The position numbers and the translations under genes were made by a program. 64,000 bases of DNA, taken from positions 11,811 through 75,810 of the forward strand of contig JBDUCQ010000001.1 in assembly GCA_040003385.1 (NCBI GenBank), written 5' to 3'. The notes beneath the pieces are model-generated. The model searched no databases, was not told where the DNA came from, and saw only the letters and a program-made list of their open reading frames with translations. Below, one piece after another: positions 1-29,092 of the stretch (positions are counted from its first letter, which is position 1; each line of letters begins with the position of its first letter). Origin of the DNA: Ginsengibacter sp. GTDB taxonomy: Bacteria > Bacteroidota > Bacteroidia > Chitinophagales > Chitinophagaceae.

Positions 1-1050
1 GGCTTTGATAAAGAACAAATGCTGATCATAAATAATGCCGGACGAGGAATAAACAACAATGCTTTTAAAGAATCATTGTCAAGTATTCCGGGTGTGAAAA
101 AAGTTGCGGCGGCCGACGGAATGCTAAGCGGACAAAACTGGACTACCAGCCTTCGTAGGCGTGGCTCACAAGATGCACAACTGGTAAATTTCCTGGATGT
201 TGATTATGACTACCTGGACGTTATGGGTATACCGATAAAAGAAGGAAGGGGATTTTCACAACAATTCATGGGAGATACCCTCACAAAAGGAATACCGGGT
301 CCCACAGAACAGGTCGTTGGTAGTGTGATCCTTAATGAAACAGCAGTTAAAGTATTAGGGATACCCGCTCCCGCAATCGGGCAACAGCTTGTTTGGTCGC
401 GTGATGCGGATACCACTTACTATATCAATATCGTAGGGGTAACAAAAGATTTTCACTTTACTTCTCTTCGCGATGAGATCAAGCCATTTGCTTTCGTTGT
501 TAATCCAGCAAGAACAAGTCTCCTGGCCGTTAAGTTGTCAGGTAAAAATATTCGCAATACGTTAGCCCAGGTAGAATCCAAATGGCAAACGAGTTCCGCA
601 GGTAAGCCATTTGACTACTATTTTTTAGATGAAAGCATTGATAAGCTTTATAAATCAGAACAGAATTTTAAAAGCTTATTTTCTTATTTCACCGTCATCG
701 CATTAATCATTGCCTGTCTTGGATTATTTGGTCTTGCTGCTTTTACGGCAGAGCAGCGTACAAAAGAAATCGGTATTAGAAAAGTGCTGGGCGCTACCGT
801 TTCAAACATTGTTGCCATGCTATCGAAAGATTTTCTAAAACTGGTAGCAATTGCCGGATTAATCGCTTTCCCAATTGCCTGGTTCGTCATGAATAAATGG
901 TTACAGGACTTTTCATATAGAGTACATATCGATTTGTCTGTTTTTGCAATTGCCGGAATAGCAGCTTTAGTGATCGCATTATTTACCGTGAGCTTCCAGG
1001 CAATAAAGGCAGGAATTGCGAACCCGGTGAAGTCGTTGAGAACTGAATAA
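1..1050 (+). CDS. MacB/FtsX-family ABC transporter permease, array copy 1 (5'-truncated by the window edge)
   Basis: The frame is open from base 1 (GFDKEQMLII, the array's G(F/Y)xK motif), so the ORF-track start at 19 is internal. Has EQRTKEIGIRKVLGA and C-terminal ANPVKSLRTE. Confidence 0.93.
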   Translation, partial: GFDKEQMLIINNAGRGINNNAFKESLSSIPGVKKVAAADGMLSGQNWTTSLRRRGSQDAQLVNFLDVDYDYLDVMGIPIKEGRGFSQQFMGDTLTKGIPGPTEQVVGSVILNETAVKVLGIPAPAIGQQLVWSRDADTTYYINIVGVTKDFHFTSLRDEIKPFAFVVNPARTSLLAVKLSGKNIRNTLAQVESKWQTSSAGKPFDYYFLDESIDKLYKSEQNFKSLFSYFTVIALIIACLGLFGLAAFTAEQRTKEIGIRKVLGATVSNIVAMLSKDFLKLVAIAGLIAFPIAWFVMNKWLQDFSYRVHIDLSVFAIAGIAALVIALFTVSFQAIKAGIANPVKSLRTE

Positions 1051-1054
1051 ACCA

Positions 1055-1100
1055 ATTTGGAGATTTGGTGATTTGAAAATTTGAAAATGAGGTATCAGGC
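1055..1100. repeat. Spacer 1: four 8-nt tandem units (ATTTGGAG/ATTTGGTG/ATTTGAAA/ATTTGAAA) followed by GAGGTATCAGGC
   Basis: Read directly between the stop at 1050 and the ATG at 1101. Confidence 0.8.
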
Positions 1101-3545
1101 ATGCTAAAAAATTATTTCAATATTGCATTCAGAAATTTTTTACATAGAAAAGTTTTTTCATTCATCAATATTATTGGACTGGGAATAGGCATCAGCGCAT
1201 CACTCGTTATTTTCTTAATCGTTGATTATGACCTGACCTTCGATAAATTCCACAAGGATGGTGACCGGATTTTCCGGGTAGTATCTGATTTTAATTTTAG
1301 TGGAAATGATGTCCATAGCTCTGGCGTTTCTTCACCCATGGGGACAACTGTTTACAAAGAACTCGCCGGTATTGAATTCGCCGCAGCTTTTCGCACTGCG
1401 AATGAAACGAAAGTGTCGATCCCCGTTGAAAATAAAGACAGGCCTGTTGTGTTTAAAAAAGAGAAACACATTGTTTATGCAGATCAAAATTATTTCCGGC
1501 TCATCCAATATACCTGGATTACCGGCTCACCATCTACATCTTTGAAAGTTCCGTACCAGGTGGTACTCACTGCTTCAAAGGCAGCATTTTATTTTCCGGC
1601 TATCCCTGCTTTACAGGTTATAGGGAGGGAGATCATTTTTGATGATTCGGTAAGGGCCACTGTTTCAGGAATTGTTAAGGACATTGAACAAAATACTGAC
1701 TTTACTTTCACCACTTTTATTTCCAGGGCAACACTCGAAAGCACATCGTTAAAGCCGGATGACTGGGATCAATGGGACAACACGAACTCCGCGTCGCAAC
1801 TCATGATCAAATTATCAAAAGGCACCAGCCGGGCTCAGATCGTAAGCCGTGTGAACACAATCTATAAGAAATATAGAAAAGATGATCCTGAAGATCATTC
1901 TAAAACAGCGTATAGCCTTCAACCCTTAGCCACAATTCATTTCGATGAGCGGTATGATAATTTTGATCAGCGCCTTGCACATAAACCGACCATGTACGGA
2001 CTCCTTGCTGTGGCTGCATTTTTATTGATACTGGGGTGTATTAATTTTATTAACCTTACCACTGCTCAGGCATCCCAGCGCGCCAAAGAGATCGGCATCA
2101 GGAAAACGATGGGAAGCTCCAAAAGGCAGCTGGTATTCCAGTTCCTCGGTGAAACATTTTTCCTCACCCTTGTTTCTACCCTGTTGTCCCTTGCCTTAAC
2201 GCCATTGCTGCTTAAGGCATTTGCAGATTTCATTCCTGAAGGATTACATTTTCATCTGTCCCAACCTGGTCTACTTATTTTTCTTTCGGTTCTCACCATC
2301 ATTGTTACATTGCTGGCCGGTTTTTATCCAGCCCTTGTGCTTTCTTCTTATAAACCAGTTGCTGTATTGAAAAACCAGCTGGGAAAATCAACAAAAACCC
2401 GCAGTGCATGGTTCCGTAAATCGCTGACAGTTTCTCAATTTGTGATAGCACAGGTTTTTATTATTGCCACAATCCTGGTGAGTAAACAAATCCGCTTTTC
2501 TTTAAATATGGATTTAGGATTTAAAAAAGATGCGGTGGTTTATTTTTCAACCAATTATTATGATACTTCAAAAAACAGCAGGCTGGTATTACTTCAGAAA
2601 CTAAAAGCCATACCCGGGATACAAATGGTAAGCATGGCTTATAATCCTCCTTCATCAAATTCACAATGGACAAGTACCACAACATTCAATGATGGAAAAA
2701 AAGACATCGAGACCGATGTGCAGGTATTGTTGGCAGATACAAATTATGTAAAACTTTTCGGGTTGAAATTGCTTGCCGGTAATGATCTGCCATTCAGTGA
2801 TACCCCCAATAGCGTATTGATCAATGAAGCTTATGCCAATATACTTGGGTTTCATAACCCCCAGCACGCGATAGGAAAACAGCTCAGGTGGAATCAAAAG
2901 GAAATCCCGATCGTTGGAGTGCTCCGCAACTTTCACCAGAGATCTCTGCATGAAATGATAAAACCATTACTGATTGCTAATTCAGGAAATACTCTACGAA
3001 CATTCAACATGTTGCTACAGTCACAGGATCCGGCTGGAACAGTCTGGAAAGGGGCAATTGATAAAATCAATAATGCGTACAACGAAGTGTATCCTGAAGC
3101 AGATATAGAATTGAATTTCCTCGACAAGACGCTGGCTAAATATTATGAAGGAGAACAACACATTTCCGGACTCCTGCTTTGGGCAACTGTTCTGGCAATT
3201 TTTATCAGCTGCCTGGGTTTATTAGGATTAGTCATGTATATCACCAATCAAAAAACAAAAGAAATAGGGATACGGAAAGTTATTGGTGCCACCATTTCAC
3301 AGATCATCCTGCTGCTGTCAAAAGATTTTTTAAAACTAATATTTATCGCATTCCTTGTGGCCTTACCGGTTGCATGGTGGGGTGCCCATACCTGGCTTCA
3401 GAATTTCGCTTATAAAACTCCGATGAGCTGGTGGGTATACATCGCAGGCGGATTGGTAATGCTATTGATGGCTTTGATAATATTGATTGCCAGGACATTC
3501 AGGGCTGCGTCGGCAAACCCGGTTGAGTCGCTTAGAACGGAGTGA
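1101..3545 (+). CDS. MacB/FtsX-family ABC permease, copy 2 (814 aa)
   Basis: MLKNYFNIAFRN start, two periplasmic plus FtsX-like TM repeats, RAKEIGIRKTMG and KTKEIGIRKVIG motifs, ends ANPVESLRTE. Confidence 0.93.
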   Translation: MLKNYFNIAFRNFLHRKVFSFINIIGLGIGISASLVIFLIVDYDLTFDKFHKDGDRIFRVVSDFNFSGNDVHSSGVSSPMGTTVYKELAGIEFAAAFRTANETKVSIPVENKDRPVVFKKEKHIVYADQNYFRLIQYTWITGSPSTSLKVPYQVVLTASKAAFYFPAIPALQVIGREIIFDDSVRATVSGIVKDIEQNTDFTFTTFISRATLESTSLKPDDWDQWDNTNSASQLMIKLSKGTSRAQIVSRVNTIYKKYRKDDPEDHSKTAYSLQPLATIHFDERYDNFDQRLAHKPTMYGLLAVAAFLLILGCINFINLTTAQASQRAKEIGIRKTMGSSKRQLVFQFLGETFFLTLVSTLLSLALTPLLLKAFADFIPEGLHFHLSQPGLLIFLSVLTIIVTLLAGFYPALVLSSYKPVAVLKNQLGKSTKTRSAWFRKSLTVSQFVIAQVFIIATILVSKQIRFSLNMDLGFKKDAVVYFSTNYYDTSKNSRLVLLQKLKAIPGIQMVSMAYNPPSSNSQWTSTTTFNDGKKDIETDVQVLLADTNYVKLFGLKLLAGNDLPFSDTPNSVLINEAYANILGFHNPQHAIGKQLRWNQKEIPIVGVLRNFHQRSLHEMIKPLLIANSGNTLRTFNMLLQSQDPAGTVWKGAIDKINNAYNEVYPEADIELNFLDKTLAKYYEGEQHISGLLLWATVLAIFISCLGLLGLVMYITNQKTKEIGIRKVIGATISQIILLLSKDFLKLIFIAFLVALPVAWWGAHTWLQNFAYKTPMSWWVYIAGGLVMLLMALIILIARTFRAASANPVESLRTE

Positions 3546-3628: not shown

Positions 3629-6028
3629 ATGATAAGGAACTTTTTCAAAACTGCGATCAGGAATTTATTGAGAAATAAAACATATACAACCATTAACATC
3701 CTGGGGCTCGCACTTGGATTATCTGTCTGCCTCATTATTTTCGCTATCATCAGCTTCGAAACCGGATTTGATAAATTTCACCATAAAAAAGACCGGATAT
3801 ACCGTGTGCTTACTGAGTTCCATGATGTTACCGGTGTAAATACAAGTGCGGGTGTTCCTTTCCCATTGCCACAAGCCATCAAAGCTGAATATCCGCAGCT
3901 TGAAAAAGTAACTTCTGTTTTTTCAAACGGGAATGACCAGATCATTATTTTGGATGATAAAGACAACCTTCAAAATAAATTTAAAGAAGAGACAGGCGTT
4001 TTTTTTACAGACCCATCGTTCTTCGAGATCTTCGACTTTCCATGGATAACCGGCACCCCATCATCACTCAATGAACCTAATAATGCCGCTCTGACAAAAT
4101 CGACTGCAATCAAATATTTCGGTGACTGGAAAAAGGCGATTGGAAAAACGATCCGGCGGAATAATAAACAGGACCTTAAAATTTCGGGTATCATCCAGGA
4201 CCCGCCTGCGAATACAGATTTCCAACTGAAGATTGTTGTCTCTTTCAAAACAATGAAAAATCCTACTGATGATTGGGGTTCCGTTTCCAGCTCCATGGGC
4301 TGTTATATTCTCCTTCCACCGGGCCTAACTGCTAAAAAATTCAATTCTCAGTTACCGGCATTTGTAAAAAAATATAAAAAGCCAGACCAGGTTAATGATG
4401 CGCAAGTGATAGGCCCGTTAAGTGAAGTGCACTTTAACAGTAAGGTGAGTAATTTCCTGGGCAGAACGATTAGTTGGGAACTTATCAGGACATTGATTTT
4501 TATTGCTTTTTTTATCCTTATTATCGCGTGTGTGAATTTTATCAACCTGTCTACAGCACAGGCAGTGAACCGGGCTAAAGAAGTCGGCATCAGGAAAGTT
4601 CTTGGAAGTAAAAAAGAGCAACTTCGCATTCAATTTCTTACCGAAACAACTCTGATCGTATTGGCTTCAGTAGCGATTGCTTTGGTCATCACAGTCGTAA
4701 CAATTCCGTACATTAAAAACCTGCTGAAACTACCGCTGTCAAATAATATATTTTCCAATCCTCTGATCGTTTTGTTTTTGATCATCATCATTCCCTTGGT
4801 GGTATTGTTGTCAGGCTTCTACCCTTCTGTTGTATTGTCCAGGTTCAATCCCGTGAATGCGCTAAAAAGTAAATCATTCGCCAACGCATCAAAAGGAATA
4901 ACGTTGAGAAAGGGACTTGTGGTGGTGCAGTTTGTAATCGCCCAGGCACTCATAATCGGCACCATAGTGATTGTTTTGCAAATGAATTATTTCAATTCAA
5001 AACCAATGGGCTTTGATAAAGAAGCCATCATCACCATTCCATTTCCAACGGACAGCGCCAGCCTTGCCAAACTTGATTTTTTAAAAAATAAATTAAGCGA
5101 ACAAAAGGGAATTGAAAAATTCAGCCTTGGTTTTGCCAGCCCGGCGCAAATCGGCAATTGGTATTCTAACTTCAAATTTGACCACGCAGCAAAGGAAACC
5201 GACTTCGGTGCCAACATGAAATGGGGGGATGAAAATTATCTCAGCACTTTCGGATTACAGCTGATAGCCGGGCATAATATCCCAAAAAGTGATACCACCA
5301 CCGGGTTTATCATCAATGAAACCCTGTTAAAAATGCTGGGGATGACTGATCCTGCCAGTGCGCTTAACAAAGAGATCAACATGTGGGATGGAAAAATCAT
5401 AGCCAACATCATTGGAGTGGTTAAAGATTTTCATTCTGCTTCCCTGCAACAACCTTTGCAACCCATTCTCATTGCAAGCAACAAAGAGGTGTATAATATT
5501 GCGGCAATCAAGCTCAGGCCACTGCAGGTCCGTGAACAGATCAAAATTCTCGAGCAGGTATGGACTTCCATTTACCCCGAATATGTTTTTGAATATGAGT
5601 TCATGGATAAAAAAATTGCATCATTCTATAATAATGAAAACAAATTATCCGGGCTGTACAAAATTTTTGCAGCGATCGCCATTTTCCTGAGCTGCCTCGG
5701 TTTGTATGGACTTGCCTCCTTCATGGCTGTACAACGCATCAAAGAAGTAGGGATCAGAAAGGTGTTGGGTGCATCGGTTAAAAGCGTCGTGTATTTATTT
5801 TCAAGGGAATTTATTACACTCATTTCAATCGCCTTCATTGTGGCGAGTGCAATAGCTTATTATTTTATGAAACAATGGCTGCAGGAATATACGTACCGGA
5901 TAGAAATTTCCTGGTGGATATTCTTATCAGCCGGACTTTTATCATTGTTCATCGCCATATTAACCGTTAGTTCGCAGGCCATCAAAGCGGCGGTAGCGAA
6001 CCCGGTAAAATCATTGAGGAGCGAGTGA
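3629..6028 (+). CDS. MacB/FtsX-family ABC permease, copy 3 (799 aa)
   Basis: Same architecture; INFINLSTAQ...RAKEVGIRKVLG equivalent; ends ANPVKSLRSE. Confidence 0.93.
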   Translation: MIRNFFKTAIRNLLRNKTYTTINILGLALGLSVCLIIFAIISFETGFDKFHHKKDRIYRVLTEFHDVTGVNTSAGVPFPLPQAIKAEYPQLEKVTSVFSNGNDQIIILDDKDNLQNKFKEETGVFFTDPSFFEIFDFPWITGTPSSLNEPNNAALTKSTAIKYFGDWKKAIGKTIRRNNKQDLKISGIIQDPPANTDFQLKIVVSFKTMKNPTDDWGSVSSSMGCYILLPPGLTAKKFNSQLPAFVKKYKKPDQVNDAQVIGPLSEVHFNSKVSNFLGRTISWELIRTLIFIAFFILIIACVNFINLSTAQAVNRAKEVGIRKVLGSKKEQLRIQFLTETTLIVLASVAIALVITVVTIPYIKNLLKLPLSNNIFSNPLIVLFLIIIIPLVVLLSGFYPSVVLSRFNPVNALKSKSFANASKGITLRKGLVVVQFVIAQALIIGTIVIVLQMNYFNSKPMGFDKEAIITIPFPTDSASLAKLDFLKNKLSEQKGIEKFSLGFASPAQIGNWYSNFKFDHAAKETDFGANMKWGDENYLSTFGLQLIAGHNIPKSDTTTGFIINETLLKMLGMTDPASALNKEINMWDGKIIANIIGVVKDFHSASLQQPLQPILIASNKEVYNIAAIKLRPLQVREQIKILEQVWTSIYPEYVFEYEFMDKKIASFYNNENKLSGLYKIFAAIAIFLSCLGLYGLASFMAVQRIKEVGIRKVLGASVKSVVYLFSREFITLISIAFIVASAIAYYFMKQWLQEYTYRIEISWWIFLSAGLLSLFIAILTVSSQAIKAAVANPVKSLRSE

Positions 6029-6190: not shown

Positions 6191-8587
6191 ATGTTTCAAA
6201 ATTACTTCAGATCGGCCCTCCGCCATTTGCGTAAGAATAAACTGTACACTTTCATCAATATTTTTGGGTTGACAGTCGGGTTAAGCGCCTGCCTGCTGAT
6301 CGGAATTTATATCAGCCATGAATTGAGTTATGATCAATTTAATGCTAACAAAAACCGTATTGTAAGGGCTACCATGGAATATGGCAAGGCCGGCACTTTG
6401 AACACCACCGCTACAACAGGTACTAAAGTTGGTCCAGAGTTCAAACGTACATTTCCTTTGGTGGAGGATTTTGCAAGAACATTCATCAGCAGCAGCGTCG
6501 TAAAAAATGGCGACAAAATATTTGATGAATCCCATATTCTTTTTGCAGATCCCTCCTTTTTCAAAATATTTTCATTTCGCCTGCTCAAGGGCGATCCGGC
6601 CACTGTGCTCGATTCACGTGATAAGATTGTCATCACACAATCGATGGCCAAAAAATATTTTGGCAATGAAGACGCGATGAATAAAACATTAACCGCTACC
6701 GGTAAAGATTTTACCGTATCCGGTATTTGTGAAGACGTACCTCAGAATTCCCAGGTAAAATTCGATTTTGCGACCCAATTTCTAAACATGGGCAATGGTG
6801 TTAAAGATGAAACGTGGTGGACCGCCAACTGGATCACTTACTTTTTGCTTCGCGATTCGAAAAGCATTCCGCAACTGCAGGCCCAGGTCAATGCCTACAT
6901 GAAAACTCCCCACGTTAGAGCTGATGCTCGACTGGAGGGCAATGGATTCCTAAGTTACCACTTAGAACCCCTCACAAGGGTTCACTTGTATTCCCCTCTT
7001 GCAGGTTTCGAACCAAACGGGAGCATAGGGTATATCTACATGTTTGTGATCATCGCTTTGCTCATCCTGGTCATTGCTTGTGCCAATTATACCAATCTTG
7101 CTACAGCTTTGTCATCCGGACGGGGCGGAGAAATAGGAATGCGCAAAGTGATGGGTGCTTCAAAACGCCAGGTGTTCCTGCAGTTCATCGGCGAGTCTTC
7201 GATGATCACTTTTATCGCAGCAGCATTTGCTTTTGGACTGAGTGTTTTGCTGATACCTTATTTTAACAACATCACAGGAAAACAATTCACAACTGAGGTT
7301 TTATTACAACCCGTTGTCATCATCGGGCTGGTCATTTTTTCCTTGCTTGTAAGCTTTTTTGCAGGCTGTTACCCCGCTTTGATTTTATCAGGAAAACAAA
7401 TTATGGGCGTACTTAAAAAGGGTTTCACATTTACAGGCGGCAACAACCTCCTTCGAAAAAGCCTCATTGTTGCACAGTTTGGAATTTCAGTTTTCCTCAT
7501 CATTTATACGGTAGTCATCCTGCAGCAGATGCACTATATGCAAACCAAAAATCTTGGCTATGATAAAGACCACATAGTAGTATTACCCATCGGTGGCAAG
7601 ATGCTGCAGAATTTTCAGAATATTAAAGATGCCATTGAACAGGTTCCAGCAGTGCAGGGAGTTACTGCGTCCTATGAAACGCCCGAGTACGTAGAATGGA
7701 CTGATGGCCTCACTGCAACGGATGAAAAAGGCAGACACGAAATATCCCTGAATGCGATGCCTGTTGATCTGGATTTCATTAAAACAATGAACATGCAACT
7801 GGTTGCCGGGCGTGATTTTCAACCCTCTGATTTCCCGGACACTGACAGCACTAAAAATTCTAACTGGAAACAGCCATACCTGGTCAATGAGACCCTCGCA
7901 AAAAAAATAGGCTGGACACCGCAGCAAGCCATTGGCAGGAATATAGAAAACCGCTCATTAGGACCCATAGTGGGAGTTGTAAAAGATTTTAATTTCAGCA
8001 GTCTCCATGATCCCATCGGGCCATTGCTTATTTTTTTAGGGAGAAATTTTTCACGCACATTCATGGTAAGGATCAGTGGCAATAATATATCTGCCACCCT
8101 CGCCCAGATGGAAATGGTGTGGAAGCAGCGTGTTCCTGACAGACCCTTCAATTATCATTTTCTTAACGAGGACTACAATAAACTTTACCAGGCCGAAGAA
8201 CGCAGCTCTGCTCTTTTTTCTGTAGCTGCAGGACTGGCAATCGTGCTGGCGAGTCTCGGCTTATTCGGCCTTGCAGCTTTCACCACGGTACAACGCACCA
8301 AGGAGATCGGCATCAGGAGAGTGCTGGGTGCTAACATAAGCAGCATCACCCTGCTGATTGCAAAAAACTTTTTGAAGCTGGTAGGCATGGCAATTTTTAT
8401 CGCAGTCCCTTTAGCGTGGTGGGCAGGAAGTCACTGGTTACAGGATTTTGCTTTCAGGATTAAAATACGGTGGGAAATATTTATTACTGCAGCCATTGCT
8501 GCGATACTGATCGCCTTGGTAACCGTAAGCTTTCATGCAATCAGAGCTGCTGTTTCAAACCCGGTAAAATCGTTGAGAAGCGAATGA
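6191..8587 (+). CDS. MacB/FtsX-family ABC permease, copy 4 (798 aa)
   Basis: Same architecture; QRTKEIGIRRVLGA; ends SNPVKSLRSE. Confidence 0.93.
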   Translation: MFQNYFRSALRHLRKNKLYTFINIFGLTVGLSACLLIGIYISHELSYDQFNANKNRIVRATMEYGKAGTLNTTATTGTKVGPEFKRTFPLVEDFARTFISSSVVKNGDKIFDESHILFADPSFFKIFSFRLLKGDPATVLDSRDKIVITQSMAKKYFGNEDAMNKTLTATGKDFTVSGICEDVPQNSQVKFDFATQFLNMGNGVKDETWWTANWITYFLLRDSKSIPQLQAQVNAYMKTPHVRADARLEGNGFLSYHLEPLTRVHLYSPLAGFEPNGSIGYIYMFVIIALLILVIACANYTNLATALSSGRGGEIGMRKVMGASKRQVFLQFIGESSMITFIAAAFAFGLSVLLIPYFNNITGKQFTTEVLLQPVVIIGLVIFSLLVSFFAGCYPALILSGKQIMGVLKKGFTFTGGNNLLRKSLIVAQFGISVFLIIYTVVILQQMHYMQTKNLGYDKDHIVVLPIGGKMLQNFQNIKDAIEQVPAVQGVTASYETPEYVEWTDGLTATDEKGRHEISLNAMPVDLDFIKTMNMQLVAGRDFQPSDFPDTDSTKNSNWKQPYLVNETLAKKIGWTPQQAIGRNIENRSLGPIVGVVKDFNFSSLHDPIGPLLIFLGRNFSRTFMVRISGNNISATLAQMEMVWKQRVPDRPFNYHFLNEDYNKLYQAEERSSALFSVAAGLAIVLASLGLFGLAAFTTVQRTKEIGIRRVLGANISSITLLIAKNFLKLVGMAIFIAVPLAWWAGSHWLQDFAFRIKIRWEIFITAAIAAILIALVTVSFHAIRAAVSNPVKSLRSE

Positions 8588-18959: not shown

Positions 18960-19036
18960 AAATCATAAAATAATCAATAATTAATAATCAATAATAGGCT
19001 ATCAACTAAGACCTGATACCTGATACCTCATACTTA
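18960..19036. repeat. Spacer 8: (TAATCAA/TAATTAA) heptads plus C-arm ACCTGATACCTGATACCTCATACT just before the ATG
   Basis: Read directly; no G-arm present. Confidence 0.8.
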
Positions 19037-19040: not shown

Positions 19041-21449
19041 ATGCTCAAAAATTATTTCATAGTAGCCTGGCGCAACATCTGCAAACGTCCTTTGTATTCA
19101 GTGCTCAATATCATTGGCCTGTCTTCAGGAGTACTATTTACATTGCTCATCGGGGCATATGTGTGGAATGAATTGGAAATAAATAAGAAGTTGCTCAATT
19201 CTAAAAACCAATATTTTCTTACAAGCCAATGGAAAGATCCCAATATGGGTGCTGATATCACGACGTTGGGACCTTTGTCCAAAAGATTGAAAGAAGAATA
19301 CCCAAATCTTGTAAGAAATTATTACAGGTGGGATGGCATTACTTCTGTTGTTTCAAAAGGAGACAAACACTTTCGTGAGAACATACAACTCGGTGACAGT
19401 ACAATTCTTTCGATGTATGGATTTGGCCTGTTAACCGGGAATGCGCGAGCGGCTTTAACCGATCCTTACTCAGTCGTCATTACGCGGGATGCCGCAATCA
19501 AATATTTTGGCAAAACAAATGTTGTGGGTGAACTGATTTCAATACAAAGTTTTTCGGGAACCCAACATGATTTTACGGTTACAGGTGTGTTGCAGGAAAT
19601 TCCTGAAAATTCTGTCACTTCCCTCAATGACGCAAATCATAATACTTTTTTTATTCCAACAAATACATTCGCTTACTTCGGAAGAAATGATTTTGAGGCA
19701 TGGACAAATATTATTATCCCTTCTTATATTGAATTGAAGGAAGGAGTTAAACTTTCCAGCCTGCAGCAGGCCATTGAACAGGTACTACAAAACAATGCTC
19801 CCGCAGGGATCAAAGAAAATTTGCTGGTTCGCCCAGTTGCTCTTACCAATTATTATTTACAAAAAAATAACGGACTGGCAAAGAGAATGCTTTATGCTTT
19901 ATCCTTCGTCGGCTTATTTATTTTGCTGATGGCGATTGTTAATTTCATCAATATTTCTATCACCGGATCGTCTTCAAGGATCAAAGAAATCGGTATCCGA
20001 AAAGTACTGGGGGGCCTGAGAAAACAAATCATCATCCAGTTCTTAACTGAATCTGTTATTCTTGTTTTCCTGTCCACAGCTCTGGCCATCATTGCGTTTC
20101 CCTATAGTCGGCCATTCTTTGGAGAATTAGTAGGGAAACAAATTCCAGGACTTTCATCGTTTCCATTGAATTTTATTTTTATCCCTGCAACACTTGTTTT
20201 ACTTGTAGGCATATTAGCAGGCTTATATCCTGCAGTGTTGCTTTCATCTCTCAAATCCTCAGATTCAATAAAAGGCAAATTAAAAACAATAAAAGAAAAT
20301 GTATGGCTCCGAAAGTCTTTGACCTCATTTCAATTCTGCATCGCCTGTGTGGTAATTATTGCCGCATTGATCGTTGCCCGGCAAGTCAATTATTTCTTTA
20401 GCCAGCAACTGGGTTATAATAAAGAATACATTGTTTCATCGCAGCTTCCCAGGGACTGGTCACCACAGGGTGTGAGGAAAATGGAAACGATCAGGAATGA
20501 ATTTGCAGCTATGCCGGAAATCAGTGAAGCCACATTATCATACGAAATACCAAATGGAATGAATGGAAGCCAGCCGCCGGTATACAAAGCAGATGACGAC
20601 TCCATACACGCGATACCCATGCAGGCCCTGGTTACAGACGAACATTATCTTGAGACTTACCAAATACCTTTGCAAGCGGGTTTATTTTTCAACAATAATG
20701 GTGGTTTTGATTCATCAAAAATTGTACTGAATGAAAAAGCAAGCGCGGATCTTGGTTGGAAAAATGCAAATGAGGCAATTGGTAAGCAGGTCAGGATCCC
20801 GGGAACCAGCACCGTATTTACCGTTCAGGGGATTGCAGGTGATTTTCATTTTAATTCCATGCAACAGAAAATTCAGCCCATCATTTTCTTTCATATACGG
20901 CTTGCTAACACTTACAGGTACATCTCACTTAAAATAAAACCGGGCAACATAGGAAAAACAATAGCTGATCTCGAAAAGAAATGGGCTGCATTATTACCAG
21001 GCAGTTCTTTTGAATACAGTTTCATGGATGACACACTAAAAAAATTATATAAAACTGAAATTCAGCTCCGGAAAGCGGCTTACACTGCTACGCTATTATC
21101 ACTCATCATTGTGCTGCTGGGGGTGATTGCCCACGTTTCTTTAAATATTCAAAAGCGTACAAAAGAAATCGGGATCCGAAAAGTATTGGGGGCTTCTGTC
21201 ACGAACATCATCATTCTTTTTATGAAAGAGACTTTAATGGTAATGACGATTGGCGGTTTGATTGCTTGTCCTATAGCGTGGTTCATCATGAAGGGATGGC
21301 TGAACGATTATGCCTACAGGATCACACCCGGAATACAACCCTTCATCATTTCCATTGCAGGGCTTGCATTGGTAACATCAATTTTAATCGTACTTCAGAC
21401 AATCAGAGCGGGGATGGCCAACCCGGTGAAGAGTTTGAGAACGGAGTGA
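19041..21449 (+). CDS. MacB/FtsX-family ABC permease, copy 9 (802 aa)
   Basis: Same architecture; RIKEIGIRKVLG and KRTKEIGIRKVLGA; ends ANPVKSLRTE. Confidence 0.93.
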   Translation: MLKNYFIVAWRNICKRPLYSVLNIIGLSSGVLFTLLIGAYVWNELEINKKLLNSKNQYFLTSQWKDPNMGADITTLGPLSKRLKEEYPNLVRNYYRWDGITSVVSKGDKHFRENIQLGDSTILSMYGFGLLTGNARAALTDPYSVVITRDAAIKYFGKTNVVGELISIQSFSGTQHDFTVTGVLQEIPENSVTSLNDANHNTFFIPTNTFAYFGRNDFEAWTNIIIPSYIELKEGVKLSSLQQAIEQVLQNNAPAGIKENLLVRPVALTNYYLQKNNGLAKRMLYALSFVGLFILLMAIVNFINISITGSSSRIKEIGIRKVLGGLRKQIIIQFLTESVILVFLSTALAIIAFPYSRPFFGELVGKQIPGLSSFPLNFIFIPATLVLLVGILAGLYPAVLLSSLKSSDSIKGKLKTIKENVWLRKSLTSFQFCIACVVIIAALIVARQVNYFFSQQLGYNKEYIVSSQLPRDWSPQGVRKMETIRNEFAAMPEISEATLSYEIPNGMNGSQPPVYKADDDSIHAIPMQALVTDEHYLETYQIPLQAGLFFNNNGGFDSSKIVLNEKASADLGWKNANEAIGKQVRIPGTSTVFTVQGIAGDFHFNSMQQKIQPIIFFHIRLANTYRYISLKIKPGNIGKTIADLEKKWAALLPGSSFEYSFMDDTLKKLYKTEIQLRKAAYTATLLSLIIVLLGVIAHVSLNIQKRTKEIGIRKVLGASVTNIIILFMKETLMVMTIGGLIACPIAWFIMKGWLNDYAYRITPGIQPFIISIAGLALVTSILIVLQTIRAGMANPVKSLRTE

Positions 21450-21564: not shown

Positions 21565-23976
21565 GTGCTAAAAAACTATATCACCATCGCCTTAAGAAAT
21601 CTTAAGAAAAATAAGGGCTTCTCTTTTATTAATATTTTCGGATTGGCGATTGGCTTAACCTGTTTCATGCTGATCGCAGTATTTGTTTATGATGAGTTGA
21701 GTTATGACCAATATCCTGCAGAGGCAAAAAACATTTACAGGGTAAGTTTAGCTGTAACCGGAAATGGGAATGTGGCTGAATATCCCAACGTAGACGCCGC
21801 AGTAGGTGAAGGTATTAAAAATGCATTTCCTGAAGTGAGGGATGTGGCAAGACTTTCTCCTGCAATTGATTTTATAAAATATGGTGACAAGCAATTCAAG
21901 GAAGAGCATCTTGCTTTTGCCGATTCAAATTTTCTGCAACTATTTACAATCCCCCTGGTAGAAGGAAATGCAGCCAGTGCGCTTATCCAACCCAACAGCA
22001 TAGTGGTCTCAAAAGCGATGGCTAAAAAATATTTCGGAAATGAGGAACCCTTAGGCAAATCTTTGGCTATAGGTATCCGCAAAGTTCCTTACAAAGTAAC
22101 CGGGGTCATAGAAAAAGTCCATGGCAATTCACATTTTCATTTTGATGCGTTTTTAAGTTTGTCAACATTCCATATTACCAATGCCACCTGGAGTAACCTG
22201 GGATATTTTACATACCTGCTTCTCAATAATCATTCTGATCCTAAAAAATTAGAAACTGCACTTCCAGCCCTGGTTGCGAAATACGTAGTTCCTGAAGTTC
22301 AGCATGACATGGGCGTAAGCCTTGCAGAAGCACAGAAATCAGTAAATACTTTCAGGTTTTTTTTACAGCCATTGACCAGTATCCATTTATACTCGGATAC
22401 CAAATTCGAGCTGGAACCAAATGGTGACATACAATATGTGTATATTTTTTCCGCACTGGCTGTTTTTATTCTATTGCTCGCATGTGTAAACTTTACCAAC
22501 CTTTCTTCTGCGCGTGCCGTAAAACGTTCAAAGGAAGTAGGTATCAGGAAAGTAATGGGTTCTGTAAAAAAGCAACTGGTGTTCCAGTTTCTTACCGAAT
22601 CAGTTTTGATCACAGGCTTTGCTATGCTGTCTGCATATATTTTGATATTCCTTTTGTTGCCATATTTCAACAACCTTTCAAATAAAAACATTGCTTTCAC
22701 ATTTTTTCTCAGTTACCGAAGTATCCTGGTGATGATAACTTTAAGTTTATTTGTGGGATTACTGGCTGGTACTTATCCGGCCTTCTTCTTATCATCATTC
22801 AATACCATAAAAGTTTTGAAGGGTACCTCCACAGCGCTGGGGTCACAGAAAAAAACGTTGCGCAGCGGGCTGATCATATTCCAGTTCCTGGTTTCCACGG
22901 CATTGATCATTGCAACAATTGTTGTTTACCAGCAACTGCATTTCATGCAAAATAAAAAATTGGGATATGATACGGAGCAGGTCTTGTTTCTTCCGGATGC
23001 AAGATTACTCGGGAAAAACCAGGTGGCTTTTGAACAGCAGTTATTACAGGACAACCGGGTAGTTTCTGCCAGCATCTCACGGTCTATTCCGGGAAGCATT
23101 TTTATGGATGGTACGGAAATCTATCCCAAAAATGAGAATTCCAACGGAACAGAAATTCATTCAAATATTTACCATGTAGATTATGATTATATCCGCACAT
23201 TAAACATTCGGGTGATCCAGGGAAGAAATTTTTCAAAAGATTTTTCCACAGATTCTGCAGGGGTGATCATCAATGAAGCAGCAGTGCGTGAATTGGGTTG
23301 GAGCCAAACAAATCCCATTGGCAGGTCAATCATACGTTCAGGGCAGCACGAGTTTAAAGTGATTGGCGTAGTTGCTGATTTCAATTACGCATCTGTAAAA
23401 CAAAAAGTGGCGCCAATGATGCTTTTACTTGGAAATAATTTTGGAGGCTTGATCGTCAAAATGAAAACTGCAGATGTAAACGGTTTCCTTACCAATCTTA
23501 AAAAACAATGGGACAGCTTTCAGCCTGGTGGCCCCCTGGAATACAATTTTATTGACGAAAGTTTTGCCGCCTTGTACAAGAGCGAACAACGTACCCAACA
23601 GATATTCACATGTTTTGCTGCGATCGCCATCATCATCGCCAGCCTTGGACTTTTCGGCCTTTCTGCATTTGTGATAGAACAACGCACAAAGGAAATAGGC
23701 ATACGGAAAGTATTGGGTGCCACTGTTAACCAGGTATTGTTATTGGTTTCCAGGGAATTTTTAACCCTTGTATGTATTGCATTTGTGATTTCTATTCCCC
23801 TTACATGGTGGGCAATGAACGCATGGCTGCAGGATTTTGCTTACAGGATAAATATGAGTGTATGGATGTTTGCAGTGGCAGGTATAACAGCAATTTTGAT
23901 TGCCTTGTTCACCATCAGCTTCCAGGCAATCAAGGCCGCAGTTGCGAACCCGGTGAAGTCGTTGAGAAGCGAGTAA
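21565..23976 (+). CDS. MacB/FtsX-family ABC permease, copy 10 (803 aa, GTG start)
   Basis: GTG CTA AAA AAC TAT gives the family's MLKNY start; ends ANPVKSLRSE. Confidence 0.92.
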   Translation: MLKNYITIALRNLKKNKGFSFINIFGLAIGLTCFMLIAVFVYDELSYDQYPAEAKNIYRVSLAVTGNGNVAEYPNVDAAVGEGIKNAFPEVRDVARLSPAIDFIKYGDKQFKEEHLAFADSNFLQLFTIPLVEGNAASALIQPNSIVVSKAMAKKYFGNEEPLGKSLAIGIRKVPYKVTGVIEKVHGNSHFHFDAFLSLSTFHITNATWSNLGYFTYLLLNNHSDPKKLETALPALVAKYVVPEVQHDMGVSLAEAQKSVNTFRFFLQPLTSIHLYSDTKFELEPNGDIQYVYIFSALAVFILLLACVNFTNLSSARAVKRSKEVGIRKVMGSVKKQLVFQFLTESVLITGFAMLSAYILIFLLLPYFNNLSNKNIAFTFFLSYRSILVMITLSLFVGLLAGTYPAFFLSSFNTIKVLKGTSTALGSQKKTLRSGLIIFQFLVSTALIIATIVVYQQLHFMQNKKLGYDTEQVLFLPDARLLGKNQVAFEQQLLQDNRVVSASISRSIPGSIFMDGTEIYPKNENSNGTEIHSNIYHVDYDYIRTLNIRVIQGRNFSKDFSTDSAGVIINEAAVRELGWSQTNPIGRSIIRSGQHEFKVIGVVADFNYASVKQKVAPMMLLLGNNFGGLIVKMKTADVNGFLTNLKKQWDSFQPGGPLEYNFIDESFAALYKSEQRTQQIFTCFAAIAIIIASLGLFGLSAFVIEQRTKEIGIRKVLGATVNQVLLLVSREFLTLVCIAFVISIPLTWWAMNAWLQDFAYRINMSVWMFAVAGITAILIALFTISFQAIKAAVANPVKSLRSE

Positions 23977-24050
23977 GGTAGGTATCAGGTATCAGGCATC
24001 AGGTATCAGGTATGAGGAATAATTAAAAATTAATAATTAATAATTGATAC
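23977..24050. repeat. Spacer 10: AGGTATC AGGTATC AGGCATC AGGTATC AGGTATG AGG plus TAATTAA heptads
   Basis: Read directly. Confidence 0.85.
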
Positions 24051-24056: not shown

Positions 24057-26534
24057 ATGTTTAAAAATTATTTAAAAATCGCATTCCGGAATATCAAATC
24101 CAAAAGAGGATATACGCTGATGAATATACTTGGGCTTGCTATGGGAATTACTTGCTGCCTGCTGATATTTCAATACGTGGCGTATGAAAAAAGCTATGAC
24201 AATTTTCATGCAAAGGCCAGCCAGGTTGTGAGGCTGAGACTGGACTTTCATGATCAGGGTAAGCTTACCATGCAATCTGCTGCCGTTTACCCGGGAATCG
24301 CACCCATGATGAAAAAAGAATTCCCTGAGGTTGAAAATTATTGCAGGCTCATTGATACAAGAATATCCTGGCTAAAAAATGAGATGGTGCAAAATAATAT
24401 CATCCTTGCAAATGATGACCGTCACATACAGGCTATTGAGAATAGTGGTTATTACGCTGATCAGTCTTTTTTAGCAATCTTCAATGTTCCTTTTGTAAAA
24501 GGCAATCCATCCACTTCTTTGGACGGACCAAACAAAATCATTTTATCAGAACGGACAGCTGAAAAATATTTTGGGAACACCGATCCTCTTGAACAAAAAA
24601 TAACAGTAAGAGAAGGCGGCAATACATTTCAATATGTGGTAACAGGTGTTTTTAAAAACTATCCAGCCAATTCACACCTTGCTTTCGATTATATCATTTC
24701 TTACCGGACATTCGATAACCTGGTGACCGGATTAGGTGCGCCTGCCTGGGCCAATCCGGAAACGAGCCTGAGCTGGTACGATTACTATGCCTATTTATTA
24801 TTGAAGCCGGGAACCGATCCCGCGAAATTTGAAACAAAGGTTCATTCTTTTGCCAACCGGTATCTTAATAAGAACTATAGCCAGGCACACAATAACAAAC
24901 AGGACCTCTTCACCATCGGGCTCAAGGATATACATCTTCAATCTCATTATAATGAAGAAGCAGGAGTAAATGGCGATAACAAAACTGTTTCATTCCTTTT
25001 CCTGATCTCATTTGTTATCATCATAATTGCCTGGGTCAATTACACCAACCTGGCTACTGCCCGGTCACTTGAAAGAGCTAAGGAAGTAGGTGTGCGAAAA
25101 GTGTTGGGTGCCTTGCGCATGAATTTAGTCGGGCAATTTTTAGCAGAAAGCCTTCTGTTGAATTTAATATCACTCCTTGTTGCACTGATACTGGCATTTG
25201 CTCTTACACCTTCTTTCAACCAGTTAATGGGGAGAGAAAAAACAGTTCTAGCATTACCATTGTCTTACTGGCTTGGCTTTATCTCTTTGTTTTTCGGAGG
25301 TGCCCTGATTTCAGGATTTTATCCTGCGTTAATACTTTCAGGATATCAACCCATGTCTGTATTAAAAGGATTGTTTAAAAATTCAATTGGCGGCATGCTG
25401 ATTAGGAAAAGCCTGGTGGTCGTCCAATTTACCATCTCGATCATTTTGATTGCCGGAACTATCATCGTCTACCGGCAGGTGGGATTTATGAGAAACCAGG
25501 ACCTTGGAGCAAATATCAACCAGACTCTTGTGTTGAATGGTTCAAGCGGTAACCAGGATTCATCGTATGGGTCTTCTTTTCTGCCATTCAAAAATGACAT
25601 TCTTCAGGTGAACGGGGTCAAAAACATTACCTCTTCGTCGAGTGTGATGGGGCGGGAAATATATCTCACAAGCACTGCGTACCTGGTGGGTGCAAAAGAA
25701 AAAAATACCCTCACGTTCTATTTTATGTACGTAGATGAAGATTTTCTTTCTGCCTATGGAATGAATTTTAAAGCCGGCCGCAATTTCTCTAAGGAAAATA
25801 ATGCTGATAAAAAATCAGTGGTATTGAATGAAGAAGCGGTCAAATTATTTGGCATTGACAAGCCTGAAAAATCTTTGGATAAATTGATCTACAACTTTCA
25901 CGATTCACTCAGGATCATAGGGGTGGTTACAAATTACCACCAATTGGGGCTAAACAAAGCCTTATTGCCCATTATATTTATTCCGAAACCAACTGTCAAT
26001 AATTTTTATTCGGTTAAATTCCAAACCCCGGTTACTCCGAAAATGATATCGGAAATAGAGAAGACCTGGAACCGTTATTTTCCCTCCAACCCTTTTAATT
26101 ATTTTTTTCTCGATGATGCTTTCAATGCCCAGTATAAAAGCGATGTGCAATTCGGGAAAGTTTTTGGCCTGTTTTCTTTGCTTGCCATCATCATCGCATG
26201 CTTTGGCCTGCTTGGTTTGTCTGCCTACAACGTATTGCAAAGAACGAGGGAAATTGGTATACGCAAAACTTTAGGTGCTTCTGTCAATCACCTGATGTTC
26301 ATTCTATCCAAAGATTTTCTGGCATTGGTGGTTACAGGATTTATTGTGGCCATACCTGTAACATGGCTGGTAATGAACCGTTGGCTGAATGCATTTGCTT
26401 ATCGCATCAACATAAGCTGGTGGATTTTTGCCATTGCAGGAATACTGGCATTTGTAATTGCAATGTTGACTGTAGGATACCAGGCCCTCAAGGCTGCATT
26501 GGCAAACCCGGTAAAAAGTTTGAGAGCAGAATAG
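24057..26534 (+). CDS. MacB/FtsX-family ABC permease, copy 11 (825 aa)
   Basis: Same architecture; most similar to copy 7; ends ANPVKSLRAE. Confidence 0.93.
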   Translation: MFKNYLKIAFRNIKSKRGYTLMNILGLAMGITCCLLIFQYVAYEKSYDNFHAKASQVVRLRLDFHDQGKLTMQSAAVYPGIAPMMKKEFPEVENYCRLIDTRISWLKNEMVQNNIILANDDRHIQAIENSGYYADQSFLAIFNVPFVKGNPSTSLDGPNKIILSERTAEKYFGNTDPLEQKITVREGGNTFQYVVTGVFKNYPANSHLAFDYIISYRTFDNLVTGLGAPAWANPETSLSWYDYYAYLLLKPGTDPAKFETKVHSFANRYLNKNYSQAHNNKQDLFTIGLKDIHLQSHYNEEAGVNGDNKTVSFLFLISFVIIIIAWVNYTNLATARSLERAKEVGVRKVLGALRMNLVGQFLAESLLLNLISLLVALILAFALTPSFNQLMGREKTVLALPLSYWLGFISLFFGGALISGFYPALILSGYQPMSVLKGLFKNSIGGMLIRKSLVVVQFTISIILIAGTIIVYRQVGFMRNQDLGANINQTLVLNGSSGNQDSSYGSSFLPFKNDILQVNGVKNITSSSSVMGREIYLTSTAYLVGAKEKNTLTFYFMYVDEDFLSAYGMNFKAGRNFSKENNADKKSVVLNEEAVKLFGIDKPEKSLDKLIYNFHDSLRIIGVVTNYHQLGLNKALLPIIFIPKPTVNNFYSVKFQTPVTPKMISEIEKTWNRYFPSNPFNYFFLDDAFNAQYKSDVQFGKVFGLFSLLAIIIACFGLLGLSAYNVLQRTREIGIRKTLGASVNHLMFILSKDFLALVVTGFIVAIPVTWLVMNRWLNAFAYRINISWWIFAIAGILAFVIAMLTVGYQALKAALANPVKSLRAE

Positions 26535-26610
26535 CCCCCGCCTGGATGACATAGTCGGGCAGGCTTCGGCAAGTTCAGGATGGAGGTGTTAGGCGTTAGG
26601 AAATTAGAAA
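26535..26610. repeat. Spacer 11: composite REP (27-bp hairpin 26537-26563 plus CTTCGGCAAGTTCAGGA) followed by heptad G-arm
   Basis: Two mismatches over 53 nt against 13696-13748. Confidence 0.85.
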
Positions 26611-26665
26611 CTAAAATGTTCAATTACTTGAATTATAAATAATCAATATTTAATAATTATTTATC

Positions 26666-29092
26666 ATGTTAAAAAATTATTTTAAAGTCGCATTGCGCAA
26701 TCTTTGGAAGAACAAAGGATTCTCTGCCCTCAACATTGTGGGCTTGTCCATAGGCATCGCTACATGCCTGCTGATCACCTTATATGTTACTGACGAACTC
26801 AGTTATGATAAGTTCAATAATAAGGCGGACCGGATCTACCGGGTAAATGTTGACCTAAAGTTTGGCGGTGCCGAACAAAAATTTGCTGTGGCTTCTGCCC
26901 CCCTCGCCTTTACCCTTGTAAAGGATTTTCCACAGGTTGAAAATGCAGTACGTTTTCGGGGTTATGGCAGCTCAGTTGTAAAAAAAGGGGAACAAAACAT
27001 AAGAGAGACGCGTATTATTTTTGCCGACTCCACCTTGTTTTCGGTATTCACGATCCCCATGGTTGCAGGCGATCCTAAAACCGCCCTTACCGAACCCAAT
27101 TCAGTAGTGATCAATCAATCAACTGCGAAAAAATATTTTGGTAGCTCCAATGCGGTCGGCCAGGTGCTCCGGTTTGATAACCGAACAGATTATAAAGTAA
27201 CCGGGGTGATACAAGACCTGCCCGGGAATTCGCATTTTAATTTTGACTTTTTTATTTCAATGTCGGGTGCCGATGAAAGCCGCAATGGTGTGTGGGCAAG
27301 TTTTAATTTCAATACATACCTCCTTTTACGCAAAGGCACAGATCCAAAAGGGGTCATTTCAAAAATGGAGGAAACGAATAATAAATATCTCTGGCCACAG
27401 GTACAGCAAATGATGAAGGTTGACCCTGCAGAATTTAAAAAGGCCGGTAATTACATGAACCTGTCTTTGATCCCACTCACAGATATTCATTTGCATTCCG
27501 ACCGGGTAGCTGAGTTGGCCCCAAACAATGACATACAGGTAGTGTATATCTTTTCGCTCATTGCCATATTTATCCTTGTCATTGCCTGTATCAATTTTAT
27601 GAACCTTTCTACCGCACGTTCTTCTAACAGGGCTAAAGAGGTAGGCATCCGCAAGGTTTTAGGTACACGCCGGTCAAACCTGGTTGGCCAGTTCTTAACT
27701 GAATCTGTATTAATGAGCTTACTTTCATTCTTGATGGCTGTGATCATAGCGGTCTTATTAATTCCCTTCTTCAACCAGCTTGCATCAAAAAAGCTCACCT
27801 TGTCTCCTTTTGATCACCCGGTTTTAGTGCCGGTGTTACTGGTCTTCGCTGTGTTGGTTGGCCTGCTTGCCGGATGTTATCCTGCTTTTTATTTATCAGC
27901 ATTTCAACCGATCCTGGTATTGAAAGGGAAACTTGCCAGTGGATTCAGGCATAGCTATTTCCGAAGCACACTTGTCGTTTTCCAGTTCGCGATTTCGATC
28001 GCATTGATCATTGGAACGGTAGTGATTTACAACCAGCTTACCTATATTCAAAATAAGAAATTAGGATTTAATAAGGACCAGGTACTTATTGTTCAGAATG
28101 CCTATGTTTTAGATAAGAAGGCAGAAACTTTTAAAAATGAGGCGCTAAAATTTAATGACATACGGTCTGCCTCTGTTTCCGGTTACCTGCCCGTTCCATC
28201 AAGCCGCAGCGACCAGCCTTTTTTTCCTGAGGGAGTCATTGACCAAAAGAAGGCAGTGGCCATGCAGCAATGGACTGTTGATGTGGATTATATTAAAACG
28301 ATGGGAATGGAAATGAAAGAGGGAAGGAATTTCTCAAAGGACCTTCTTACTGACAGCAGCTCCATTATCATCAATGAAACTGCGGCAAAGCTTTTTGGTT
28401 TTACAGATCCTCTTAATAAAAAGATTACATCCTTCACAGATATCAACAATGGAGGGAACAAGCTCAATTACCAGATCATTGGCGTCGTTAAAAATTTTCA
28501 CTATGCATCACTCAGGGAAAACATCGGGGCATTGTGTATGTTCCTCGGGAAATCGACGGATGCCATCAGTTTCAGGATTAACGCAGGCAATGCCTCAGCG
28601 ACAGTAAAAAATATTGAGTCACTCTGGAAAAAAATGGTACCCTCCGAGCCATTCACCTATTCATTCATGAATGAAGATTTTAACAGGATGTATGAAGCCG
28701 AACAAAGGGTGGGGAAAATATTTATTTCTTTTGCAATTCTTGCAATCCTGATTGCCTGCCTCGGCCTGTTTGGGTTGGCCACCTATGCTGCAGAACAACG
28801 CACCAAAGAGATTGGGATCAGGAAGGTTCTTGGAGCAACTGTTTCGAATATTGTTCAAATGCTGTCAAAAGATTTTTTGAAACTGGTGGTGATTGCTGCC
28901 CTGATTGCATTCCCGGTTTCCTGGTGGGCCATGAACAAATGGCTGCAGGACTTTGCTTACAGGATCACGATCAGCTGGTGGATATTTGTTGGAGCAGCCT
29001 TCATTGCAGTGCTAATCGCATTATTTACAATAAGCTTTAAAGCCATACGTGCGGCGATATCCAACCCGGTGAAGTCGCTGAGAGCGGAATGA
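26666..29092 (+). CDS. MacB/FtsX-family ABC permease, copy 12 (808 aa)
   Basis: Same architecture; INFMNLSTARSSNRAKEVGIRKVLG; ends SNPVKSLRAE. Confidence 0.93.
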   Translation: MLKNYFKVALRNLWKNKGFSALNIVGLSIGIATCLLITLYVTDELSYDKFNNKADRIYRVNVDLKFGGAEQKFAVASAPLAFTLVKDFPQVENAVRFRGYGSSVVKKGEQNIRETRIIFADSTLFSVFTIPMVAGDPKTALTEPNSVVINQSTAKKYFGSSNAVGQVLRFDNRTDYKVTGVIQDLPGNSHFNFDFFISMSGADESRNGVWASFNFNTYLLLRKGTDPKGVISKMEETNNKYLWPQVQQMMKVDPAEFKKAGNYMNLSLIPLTDIHLHSDRVAELAPNNDIQVVYIFSLIAIFILVIACINFMNLSTARSSNRAKEVGIRKVLGTRRSNLVGQFLTESVLMSLLSFLMAVIIAVLLIPFFNQLASKKLTLSPFDHPVLVPVLLVFAVLVGLLAGCYPAFYLSAFQPILVLKGKLASGFRHSYFRSTLVVFQFAISIALIIGTVVIYNQLTYIQNKKLGFNKDQVLIVQNAYVLDKKAETFKNEALKFNDIRSASVSGYLPVPSSRSDQPFFPEGVIDQKKAVAMQQWTVDVDYIKTMGMEMKEGRNFSKDLLTDSSSIIINETAAKLFGFTDPLNKKITSFTDINNGGNKLNYQIIGVVKNFHYASLRENIGALCMFLGKSTDAISFRINAGNASATVKNIESLWKKMVPSEPFTYSFMNEDFNRMYEAEQRVGKIFISFAILAILIACLGLFGLATYAAEQRTKEIGIRKVLGATVSNIVQMLSKDFLKLVVIAALIAFPVSWWAMNKWLQDFAYRITISWWIFVGAAFIAVLIALFTISFKAIRAAISNPVKSLRAE

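Follow-up and report, generated by a model that had tools for sequence, protein, structure and literature searches.

An invariant octamer near the ends of twelve tandem permease genes in Ginsengibacter sp. is probably a footprint of a genome-wide CCNGG preference

We analysed a stretch of 64,000 nucleotides (nt) from Ginsengibacter sp. (assembly GCA_040003385.1, contig JBDUCQ010000001.1, positions 11,811-75,810, forward strand), hereafter the window. It carries an array of twelve tandem ADOP-like permease genes, and every one of them contains the octamer AACCCGGT in the codons of its C-terminal tail (Table 1). This octamer is probably a compositional footprint of a genome-wide preference for the pentamer CCNGG, and not a signal specific to the permeases. 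In the explanation that we propose, the protein would dictate six of the eight bases (AAY CCN GT), leaving free only the third bases of the Asn and Pro codons. These would be set to C and G, completing the CCNGG pentamer C-CCG-G (ACCCGGT with its flanks), in a genome that creates and keeps CCNGG wherever coding permits.

The octamer had 16 matches in the window, compared with 0.94 expected from shuffles, and twelve of these were the tail sites, all on the forward strand. All twelve were in frame, as the AAC-CCG-GTN that encodes Asn-Pro-Val in the tail ANPVKSLRTE, and lay 30 nt from the end of the open reading frame (ORF), counting the stop codon. An initial annotation of the window had reported this invariance, together with free switching of the Ser codon in the same tails (TCG five times, TCA once, AGT five times, AGC once), an AGA codon for Arg in 11 of the 12 tails, and other codons at the internal Asn-Pro-Val motifs (AAT-CCC-GTG at 4847 and AAC-CCT-GTC at 12532). 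We reproduced all of these observations. The annotation's premise of saturated synonymous sites was likewise sound, since full-length identity of the paralogs to the first one was only 28-34%. Background codon usage was 0.30-0.36 for AAC and 0.24-0.25 for CCG. Eleven other Asn/Pro columns with at least 90% conservation in the paralog alignment had mixed or plain majority codons, as did all six Arg columns conserved to this degree outside the tail, and nowhere in the gene alignment was synonymous constraint as strong as in the last 8 codons (236 same-codon pairs, 119 expected). Thus the octamer is real and plain codon usage does not explain it. The invariance of the tail is far beyond chance under a naive codon-usage null.

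The pentamer within the octamer was in excess throughout the window. As a null we shuffled synonymous codons within each gene, which keeps the protein and the codon usage, and excluded the tails. CCNGG was found 309 times against 165.1 expected (z = 15.8), making it the most over-represented of the 256 words of the form XXNYY. The neighbours that differ from it by an inner transition were depleted (CTNGG at 0.67 of expectation, z = -5.6; CCNAG at 0.49, z = -6.1), while the outer neighbours were near expectation (TCNGG 1.00, CCNGA 1.09). The excess was about 1.9-fold both in the permease genes (153 vs 77.9) and in the unrelated genes of the window (156 vs 87.5). The longer palindrome ACCNGGT had 50 sites in the window, 8.45 being expected, and 38 of them were outside the tails. 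Some other words were deficient in the coding regions of the window, namely GANTC (0.61) and TCNGA (0.59) in the synonymous shuffles and CTAG (10 vs 40 expected). These deficits look like restriction-site avoidance, judging from the word counts.

The word bias acts at the DNA level, as it was seen in two reading frames (labelled b and c) and also outside long ORFs. In frame c, the third base of NCx codons preceding NGG codons was C in 49%, T in 0% (0/160), A in 38% and G in 13%, compared with 24%, 26%, 36% and 15% before other codons. The change is therefore from T to C only, with A and G unaffected. In frame b, which is the frame of the tails, C-CCA-G (4/516) and C-CAA-G (4/222) were both nearly absent and NAC-CAG-G reached 83%. 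The motif [NDHY]-Q-V was encoded by NAC-CAG-GTN in 12 of its 14 occurrences in the window. A second genome-wide context effect, favouring a C-ending codon before any CNG codon, would account for the choice of AAC for Asn. Two-fold degenerate codons ending in a pyrimidine were C-ending in 69-75% of cases before a CNG codon, and in 80-86% when a G followed that codon. AAC before CCG-G is thus expected at ~86% in the window, and its presence in 12 of 12 tails is unsurprising (0.86^12 ~ 0.16).

To compare the tails with those of relatives we collected 160 related loci, the best relatives being 56-73% identical. For 206 tails the search had used N-terminal and internal peptides, which left them unselected by tail sequence. 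AAC-CCG made up 36% of 271 related tails and 24% of the 206 unselected ones. AAC and CCG co-occurred within loci above expectation. The enrichment of the pair was present only when Val (GTN) followed (odds ratio 2.65, p = 2e-6) and was not found in the Ile and Ala tails of related loci. This restriction to Val indicates that the unit is the nucleotide word C-CCG-G, whose first C ends the Asn codon and whose final G opens the Val codon. Gene 6 had its nearest orthologs at 73% and 68% identity, and these carried AAT-CCT and similar codons at the tail. Arrays were more uniform within one genome than between genomes: some were all AAC-CCG (4/4 or 5/5), a Runella array was all AAT-CCT (or GAT-CCT) and others were mostly CCA, with paralogs each ~37% identical. 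Varied codons at the site and close orthologs lacking the octamer are largely what the initial annotation had named as telling against selection on this sequence.

We then related the tails to the word bias of each genome in the 70 related Bacteroidota loci with at least three Val tails. The CCNGG index was the count of CCNGG relative to CTNGG and CCNAG, with the tails excluded. Loci with a higher index tended to have CCCGG in a larger share of their tails (Spearman 0.59, p = 7e-8). The window, with 12 of 12 CCCGG tails, had an index of 3.96, among the highest. In loci with an index below 1, CCCGG was present in only one of 44 tails. These low-index loci, which include Runella, Formosa and other Flavobacteriaceae, were depleted in CCNGG and enriched in NCT-NGG. 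An internal conserved site, Y-P-[A/G/V/D/E], followed the same gradient of CCNGG use (27%, 13% and 4%). Outside long ORFs, the 27 loci with the highest index (labelled high-index) had 344 CCNGG, 102 CTNGG and 65 CCNAG. A family-specific function is unlikely given the low-index genomes without CCCGG tails, since such a function would not vanish there. The opposite footprint was seen in L030 (Runella), L011, L014, L071, L076, L153 and L058, with a strong deficit of CCNGG (indices of 0.2-0.8) and AAT-CCT or CCA tails. From its words it is as might be expected for methylation without very-short-patch (VSP) repair, or for restriction-site avoidance.

From these words we infer a CCNGG-specific 5-methylcytosine (m5C) methyltransferase, methylation of CCNGG, and a VSP repair nuclease of the Vsr type. 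Such a nuclease would return the T:G mismatch at the inner C to C:G, by which CTNGG and CCNAG (here AAC-CCA-G) would be lost and CCNGG would accumulate. Two further factors may act on the tails, a preference for G-ending and avoidance of C-ending codons in the last ~8 codons and an occasional gene conversion of 3′ ends. Combined, these factors would probably lift tail CCCGG from the ~25% of comparable sites to the 58% seen in similar genomes and the 12 of 12 found here. The initial annotation had proposed selection on the nucleotide sequence and had suggested methylation of the palindrome CCGG as one cause. A nucleotide-level force and a palindrome of the methylation type stood, but the relevant word is CCNGG and not CCGG, and the bias is genome-wide instead of specific to permease tails.

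CCNGG-specific m5C systems of the SsoII and ScrFI type have Vsr-like partners, and their recognition sequence is the word favoured here; unlike them, the window has no methyltransferase, restriction or vsr gene. VSP repair has been tied to the maintenance and over-representation of Dcm sites (PMC2715241; bioRxiv 10.1101/070839). For E. coli, CCWGG is described as over-represented and CTWGG and CCWAG as depleted (Bhagwat and McClelland 1992, as cited in bioRxiv 10.1101/070839). By analogy, the footprint in the window matches VSP repair of the Dcm/Vsr type. In both, the word in excess is a palindromic pentamer whose inner C can be methylated, and the words one inner transition away from it are depleted. 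The effect is likewise T-to-C only, acts on DNA in all frames and outside long ORFs, and varies between genomes. The word here differs from the E. coli one in accepting any middle base (CCNGG), C-CCA-G and C-CAA-G both being removed. The excess is ~26% there and ~1.9-fold here, with NCT-NGG at 0/160. The host here is a Chitinophagaceae-like member of the Bacteroidota, whose footprint is known from word statistics and whose enzymes are putative. In genomes without Vsr, the target motifs of methyltransferases are under-represented (bioRxiv 10.1101/070839). This pattern is shared by the low-index relatives, in which CCNGG is depleted and tails avoid CCG-G, and not by the window.

Several results weigh against the CCNGG explanation. 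DNA methylase and Vsr families had no match among the annotated proteins of the window. Of its 59 generic [NDHY]-P-[V/A/D/E/G] sites only 13 had CCNGG, and a conserved Y-P-A site had it in 2 of 9 window paralogs. In the high-index genomes, CCCGG was present in 58% of tails and in 27% at the internal Y-P control (odds ratio 3.9, p = 2.5e-7). The genome-wide effect thus gives the direction and not the completeness: 12 of 12 is not predicted by it alone, and with a per-tail probability of ~0.6-0.75 such a count lies in the upper tail (about 0.002 to 0.03). A change from CCT or CCC to CCG is a transversion, outside what classical VSP repair drives. Nor does classical Vsr action favour C at the outer position; here that preference shows up as a separate codon-context effect. 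Finally, CCNGG does not account for AGA in 11 of 12 tails, TTG in 8 of 12 or Ser TCG/AGT in 10 of 12.

Some modest, local and tail-specific contribution to the octamer therefore has to be allowed. TCG and AGT are the two rarest Ser codons, and in the window tails GTG was always paired with AAG (6/6). Over the last ~8 codons of the family, G-ending codons (CCG, GTG, AAG, TTG, ACG) were preferred about two-fold. In the last ~8 codons of 368 non-permease ORFs, taken from the loci L001-L080 and the window, C-ending codons were depleted (for example, 47 vs 76 at codon -2) and G-ending ones mildly enriched. There is thus a general 3′-end codon bias in these Bacteroidota, weaker in unrelated genes than in the permease family. 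This stop-proximal bias and gene conversion of 3′ ends, which is clear in the related locus L111, probably both contribute to the excess in the tails.

Concerted evolution could also be the main cause of the invariance, with short gene conversions between paralog 3′ ends homogenising the tail. Heteroduplex T:G mismatches would possibly be resolved with a VSP bias, and AAC-CCG and AGA would be the variants fixed here. As the main cause we regard this as unlikely, though several observations point in its direction. The six paralogs of L111, 32-42% identical (about 37%), share a nearly identical 3′ end of ~63 nt (ACC ATCAGTTTTCAGGCGGTAAAAGCAGCATTGGCCAATCCGGTGAAGAGTTTRAGGAGTGARTRA) with a sharp upstream boundary. 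This makes the L111 tail a clear case of concerted evolution. Sharing of the same codon within loci was raised over the last 20 codons (z mostly about 2 to 12, vs about 0 to 4 at the control motif), two Ala columns and the Asn column being exceptions. Orthologs differed between genomes while paralogs inside one genome agreed, and tail similarity was independent of gene phylogeny. Relic second tails were present downstream of several genes (described below), and the spacers after genes 3 and 4 were much more alike than the genes themselves. Against this, the variable tail sites of the window had no haplotype structure (p = 0.66), so that any gene conversion there is not recent. The third base of Val, only 3 nt from the third base of Pro, was at background frequencies (G6/A4/T2), and the GCN/TCN codon directly upstream of the octamer was unbiased. 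The N-terminal conserved head showed no homogenisation. Moreover, neutral conversion would neither favour one variant across many genera nor track the CCNGG index. GC-biased gene conversion was rejected, since it is contradicted by AGT over AGC, AGA over AGG and the depletion of C-ending codons.

An array-specific function of the octamer, or of the palindrome ACCCGGT, might be considered instead. The site could serve in binding of a regulator or roadblock, as a methylation-dependent switch, as a seed match for a small RNA, or as an RNase site at the cistron end. We consider such a site improbable. The 12 of 12 copies here, the 4/4 or 5/5 in some related arrays and the unexplained AGA in 11 of 12 tails would fit it, as would a CCCGG frequency in tails about twice that at the conserved internal control and a codon bias across the family that is stronger in the last 8 codons than in the control motif. 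The word was nevertheless gone from the tails of low-index genomes (1/44), the nearest orthologs did not retain the octamer, and the same word is enriched across unrelated genes. Within loci, the octamer was uncoupled from every other tail codon. AACCCG did not differ significantly by spacer length or downstream paralog, CCG being only modestly higher with long spacers.

Two of the roles suggested in the initial annotation found no support. For an RNA processing or pairing element, RNAalifold gave 0 consensus pairs in the twelve tails, no recurrent complement RYYGGGTT was found in the array, and mutual information in 281 family tails did not exceed 0.06 bits. Rfam gave no meaningful match, with a single opposite-strand match far below the gathering score (E = 0.71). 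For a recombination core, the flanks of the octamer had no inverted arm repeats and the window had no recombinase, integrase or invertase, its sole transposase-like gene being an IS200-like Y1 transposase (44691-45293).

A number of other candidates were tried and rejected. CCGG as a methylation site marking the tails was one; the window has 280 CCGG, slightly above expectation, and CCGG thus cannot mark tails specifically. A -1 frameshift at A_AAC_CCG had the preceding A in only 6 of 12 copies, its -1 products were unconserved and the downstream hairpins were too distant. A promoter inside the tail was not indicated, as a scan of the sigma-70 type gave no recurrent tail site and the Bacteroidetes -33/-7 motif was not seen by eye. 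Had the tail been part of the translation-initiation region of the next paralog, short spacers would have been the place to look, and AAC-CCG was no commoner with them. A bipartite motif with AGA or TTG was rejected on the lack of within-locus coupling between AACCCG and other tail codons.

Translational selection, in which AAC and CCG would make decoding of a critical Asn-Pro close to the C-terminus more accurate or faster, is very improbable. The lean of the family's tail codons towards G-ending forms and the codon shift in the last ~8 codons of non-permease genes would agree with it. It is largely refuted by a word bias that is present outside long ORFs and in another frame and is T-to-C only. 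The other invariant Asn and Pro columns of the permeases were unbiased, and the preference for AAC-CCG vanished when the next codon did not begin with G. In the literature we found nothing on the codon usage of these permease arrays.

A further reading may also be considered, in one of two forms. Either the paralogs repeatedly exchanged short tail segments, with VSP repair of the heteroduplexes as a biased conversion drive fixing AAC-CCG-G throughout the array, or a methylated ACCCGGT at each gene end was co-opted as an epigenetic or roadblock signal governing read-through into the following paralog. We hold this to be quite doubtful, and the genome-wide CCNGG footprint is preferred.

According to Pfam, each permease of the array, of ~800 amino acids, has two MacB_PCD and two FtsX domains. 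The array resembles ADOP (TIGR03434) and MacB/FtsX-type ABC permeases in its two MacB_PCD plus FtsX modules and its C-terminal xPVxxLRxE tail, and ADOP/MacB-type permeases in forming a large paralogous array with one ATPase. Its TIGR03434 scores (311.9 and 337.8 bits) are below the NCBIfam cut-off of 622.3. It differs from ADOP in forming a Bacteroidota branch outside the acidobacterial family proper (scores 312-338 vs 622). The array is followed by genes for a DUF4097 protein, a single ABC ATPase and a TolC-like protein (Table 1). Further downstream, the IS200-like Y1 transposase gene, which is RAYT-like and on the reverse strand, adjoins tandem repeats at 44398-44575, where a 16-mer is present in 3.8 copies and a 49-mer in 1.9 copies.

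The spacers of the array consist of 7-nt tandem repeats. A run of (AGGTATN)n starts at, or together with, the stop codon, the reverse-complementary run (NATACCT)n reaches to 5-25 nt ahead of the next ATG, and AT-rich (AATAATN)n heptads are located between these arms. Within the window the heptad repeats were confined to the array spacers (29 matches vs 0.08 expected). Spacers with both arms can, by their sequence, form a long hairpin that would bring the stop of one gene near the start of the next. The predicted hairpin could mediate translation coupling or attenuation between neighbouring genes. Genes 6 and 11 alone end in TAG, and each is directly followed by a copy of a 40-nt repeat, CCCCCGCCTGRATGACATAGTCGGGCAGGCTTCGGCAAGT (13702-13741 and 26535-26574). 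The repeat looks like a small insertion similar to repetitive extragenic palindromic (REP) elements, with a GCCTG/CAGGC stem.

Relics of a second permease tail were also found in the spacers, for example AAAAGTTTGAGAAACGAATAA at 6085-6105 and a weaker one at 8632-8650. Downstream of intact genes in related loci there were 7 such cases in 278 tails and none in shuffles (loci L080, L067, L078, L077 and L070). The similarity of these relics to the tails suggests that 3′ ends were duplicated or replaced in the past. A short conserved ORF, ATGACAAAAGATATCAACTTCTGCACCTGA, encoding MTKDINFCT*, is located at 6123-6152, with counterparts in homologous places after genes 4 and 5. Longer versions of it are MIKDMNFFTSYLIPDT and MIQGMKFYTSYLKPNN, and the ORF extends into the right arm of the hairpin. 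Its product could be a leader peptide.

Table 1. Positions of the octamer, the permease array with its spacer repeats and downstream genes (window coordinates), and permease 3′ ends in the related locus L111 (coordinates of that locus).
Feature	Position	Strand	Remark
Array of 12 tandem ADOP-like duplicated FtsX/MacB_PCD permease genes	19..29092	+	
AACCCGGT, tail of permease 1	1021..1028	+	gene 19-1050, partial at window edge; includes CCNGG site CCCGG
AACCCGGT, tail of permease 2	3516..3523	+	gene 1101-3545
AACCCGGT, tail of permease 3	5999..6006	+	gene 3629-6028
AACCCGGT, tail of permease 4	8558..8565	+	gene 6191-8587
AACCCGGT, tail of permease 5	11164..11171	+	gene 8722-11193
AACCCGGT, tail of permease 6	13672..13679	+	gene 11341-13701
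AACCCGGT, tail of permease 7	16460..16467	+	gene 14045-16489
AACCCGGT, tail of permease 8	18905..18912	+	gene 16568-18934
AACCCGGT, tail of permease 9	21420..21427	+	gene 19041-21449
AACCCGGT, tail of permease 10	23947..23954	+	gene 21565-23976
AACCCGGT, tail of permease 11	26505..26512	+	gene 24057-26534
AACCCGGT, tail of permease 12	29063..29070	+	gene 26666-29092
Heptad-repeat spacers	6030-6058/6147-6178, 8584-8617/8692-8716, 11188-11225/11304-11331		
Heptad-repeat spacers	13750-13793, 19005-19035, 21454-21498, 23980-24017, 26584-26600, 29093-29109		
DUF4097 gene	29321-30361		follows array
Single ABC ATPase gene	30443-31105		after DUF4097 gene
TolC-like OEP gene	31118-32554		after ABC ATPase gene
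L111 permease 3′ ends	2037, 4671, 7252, 9812, 12364, 15622		

Synonymous invariance among old paralogs can mislead, since a short-word bias of the genome mimics a hidden functional element. Nulls based on codon usage are insufficient for such cases, and context-aware, genome-specific nulls are needed. For the function of the permease array the analysis adds little, the candidate for a hidden signal being mostly explained away. The unusually strong CCNGG footprint in some soil Bacteroidota, with its mirror image in relatives, is of moderate interest in itself. It predicts lineages with a CCNGG methyltransferase, with or without Vsr-type repair, which could be checked by methylome analysis.

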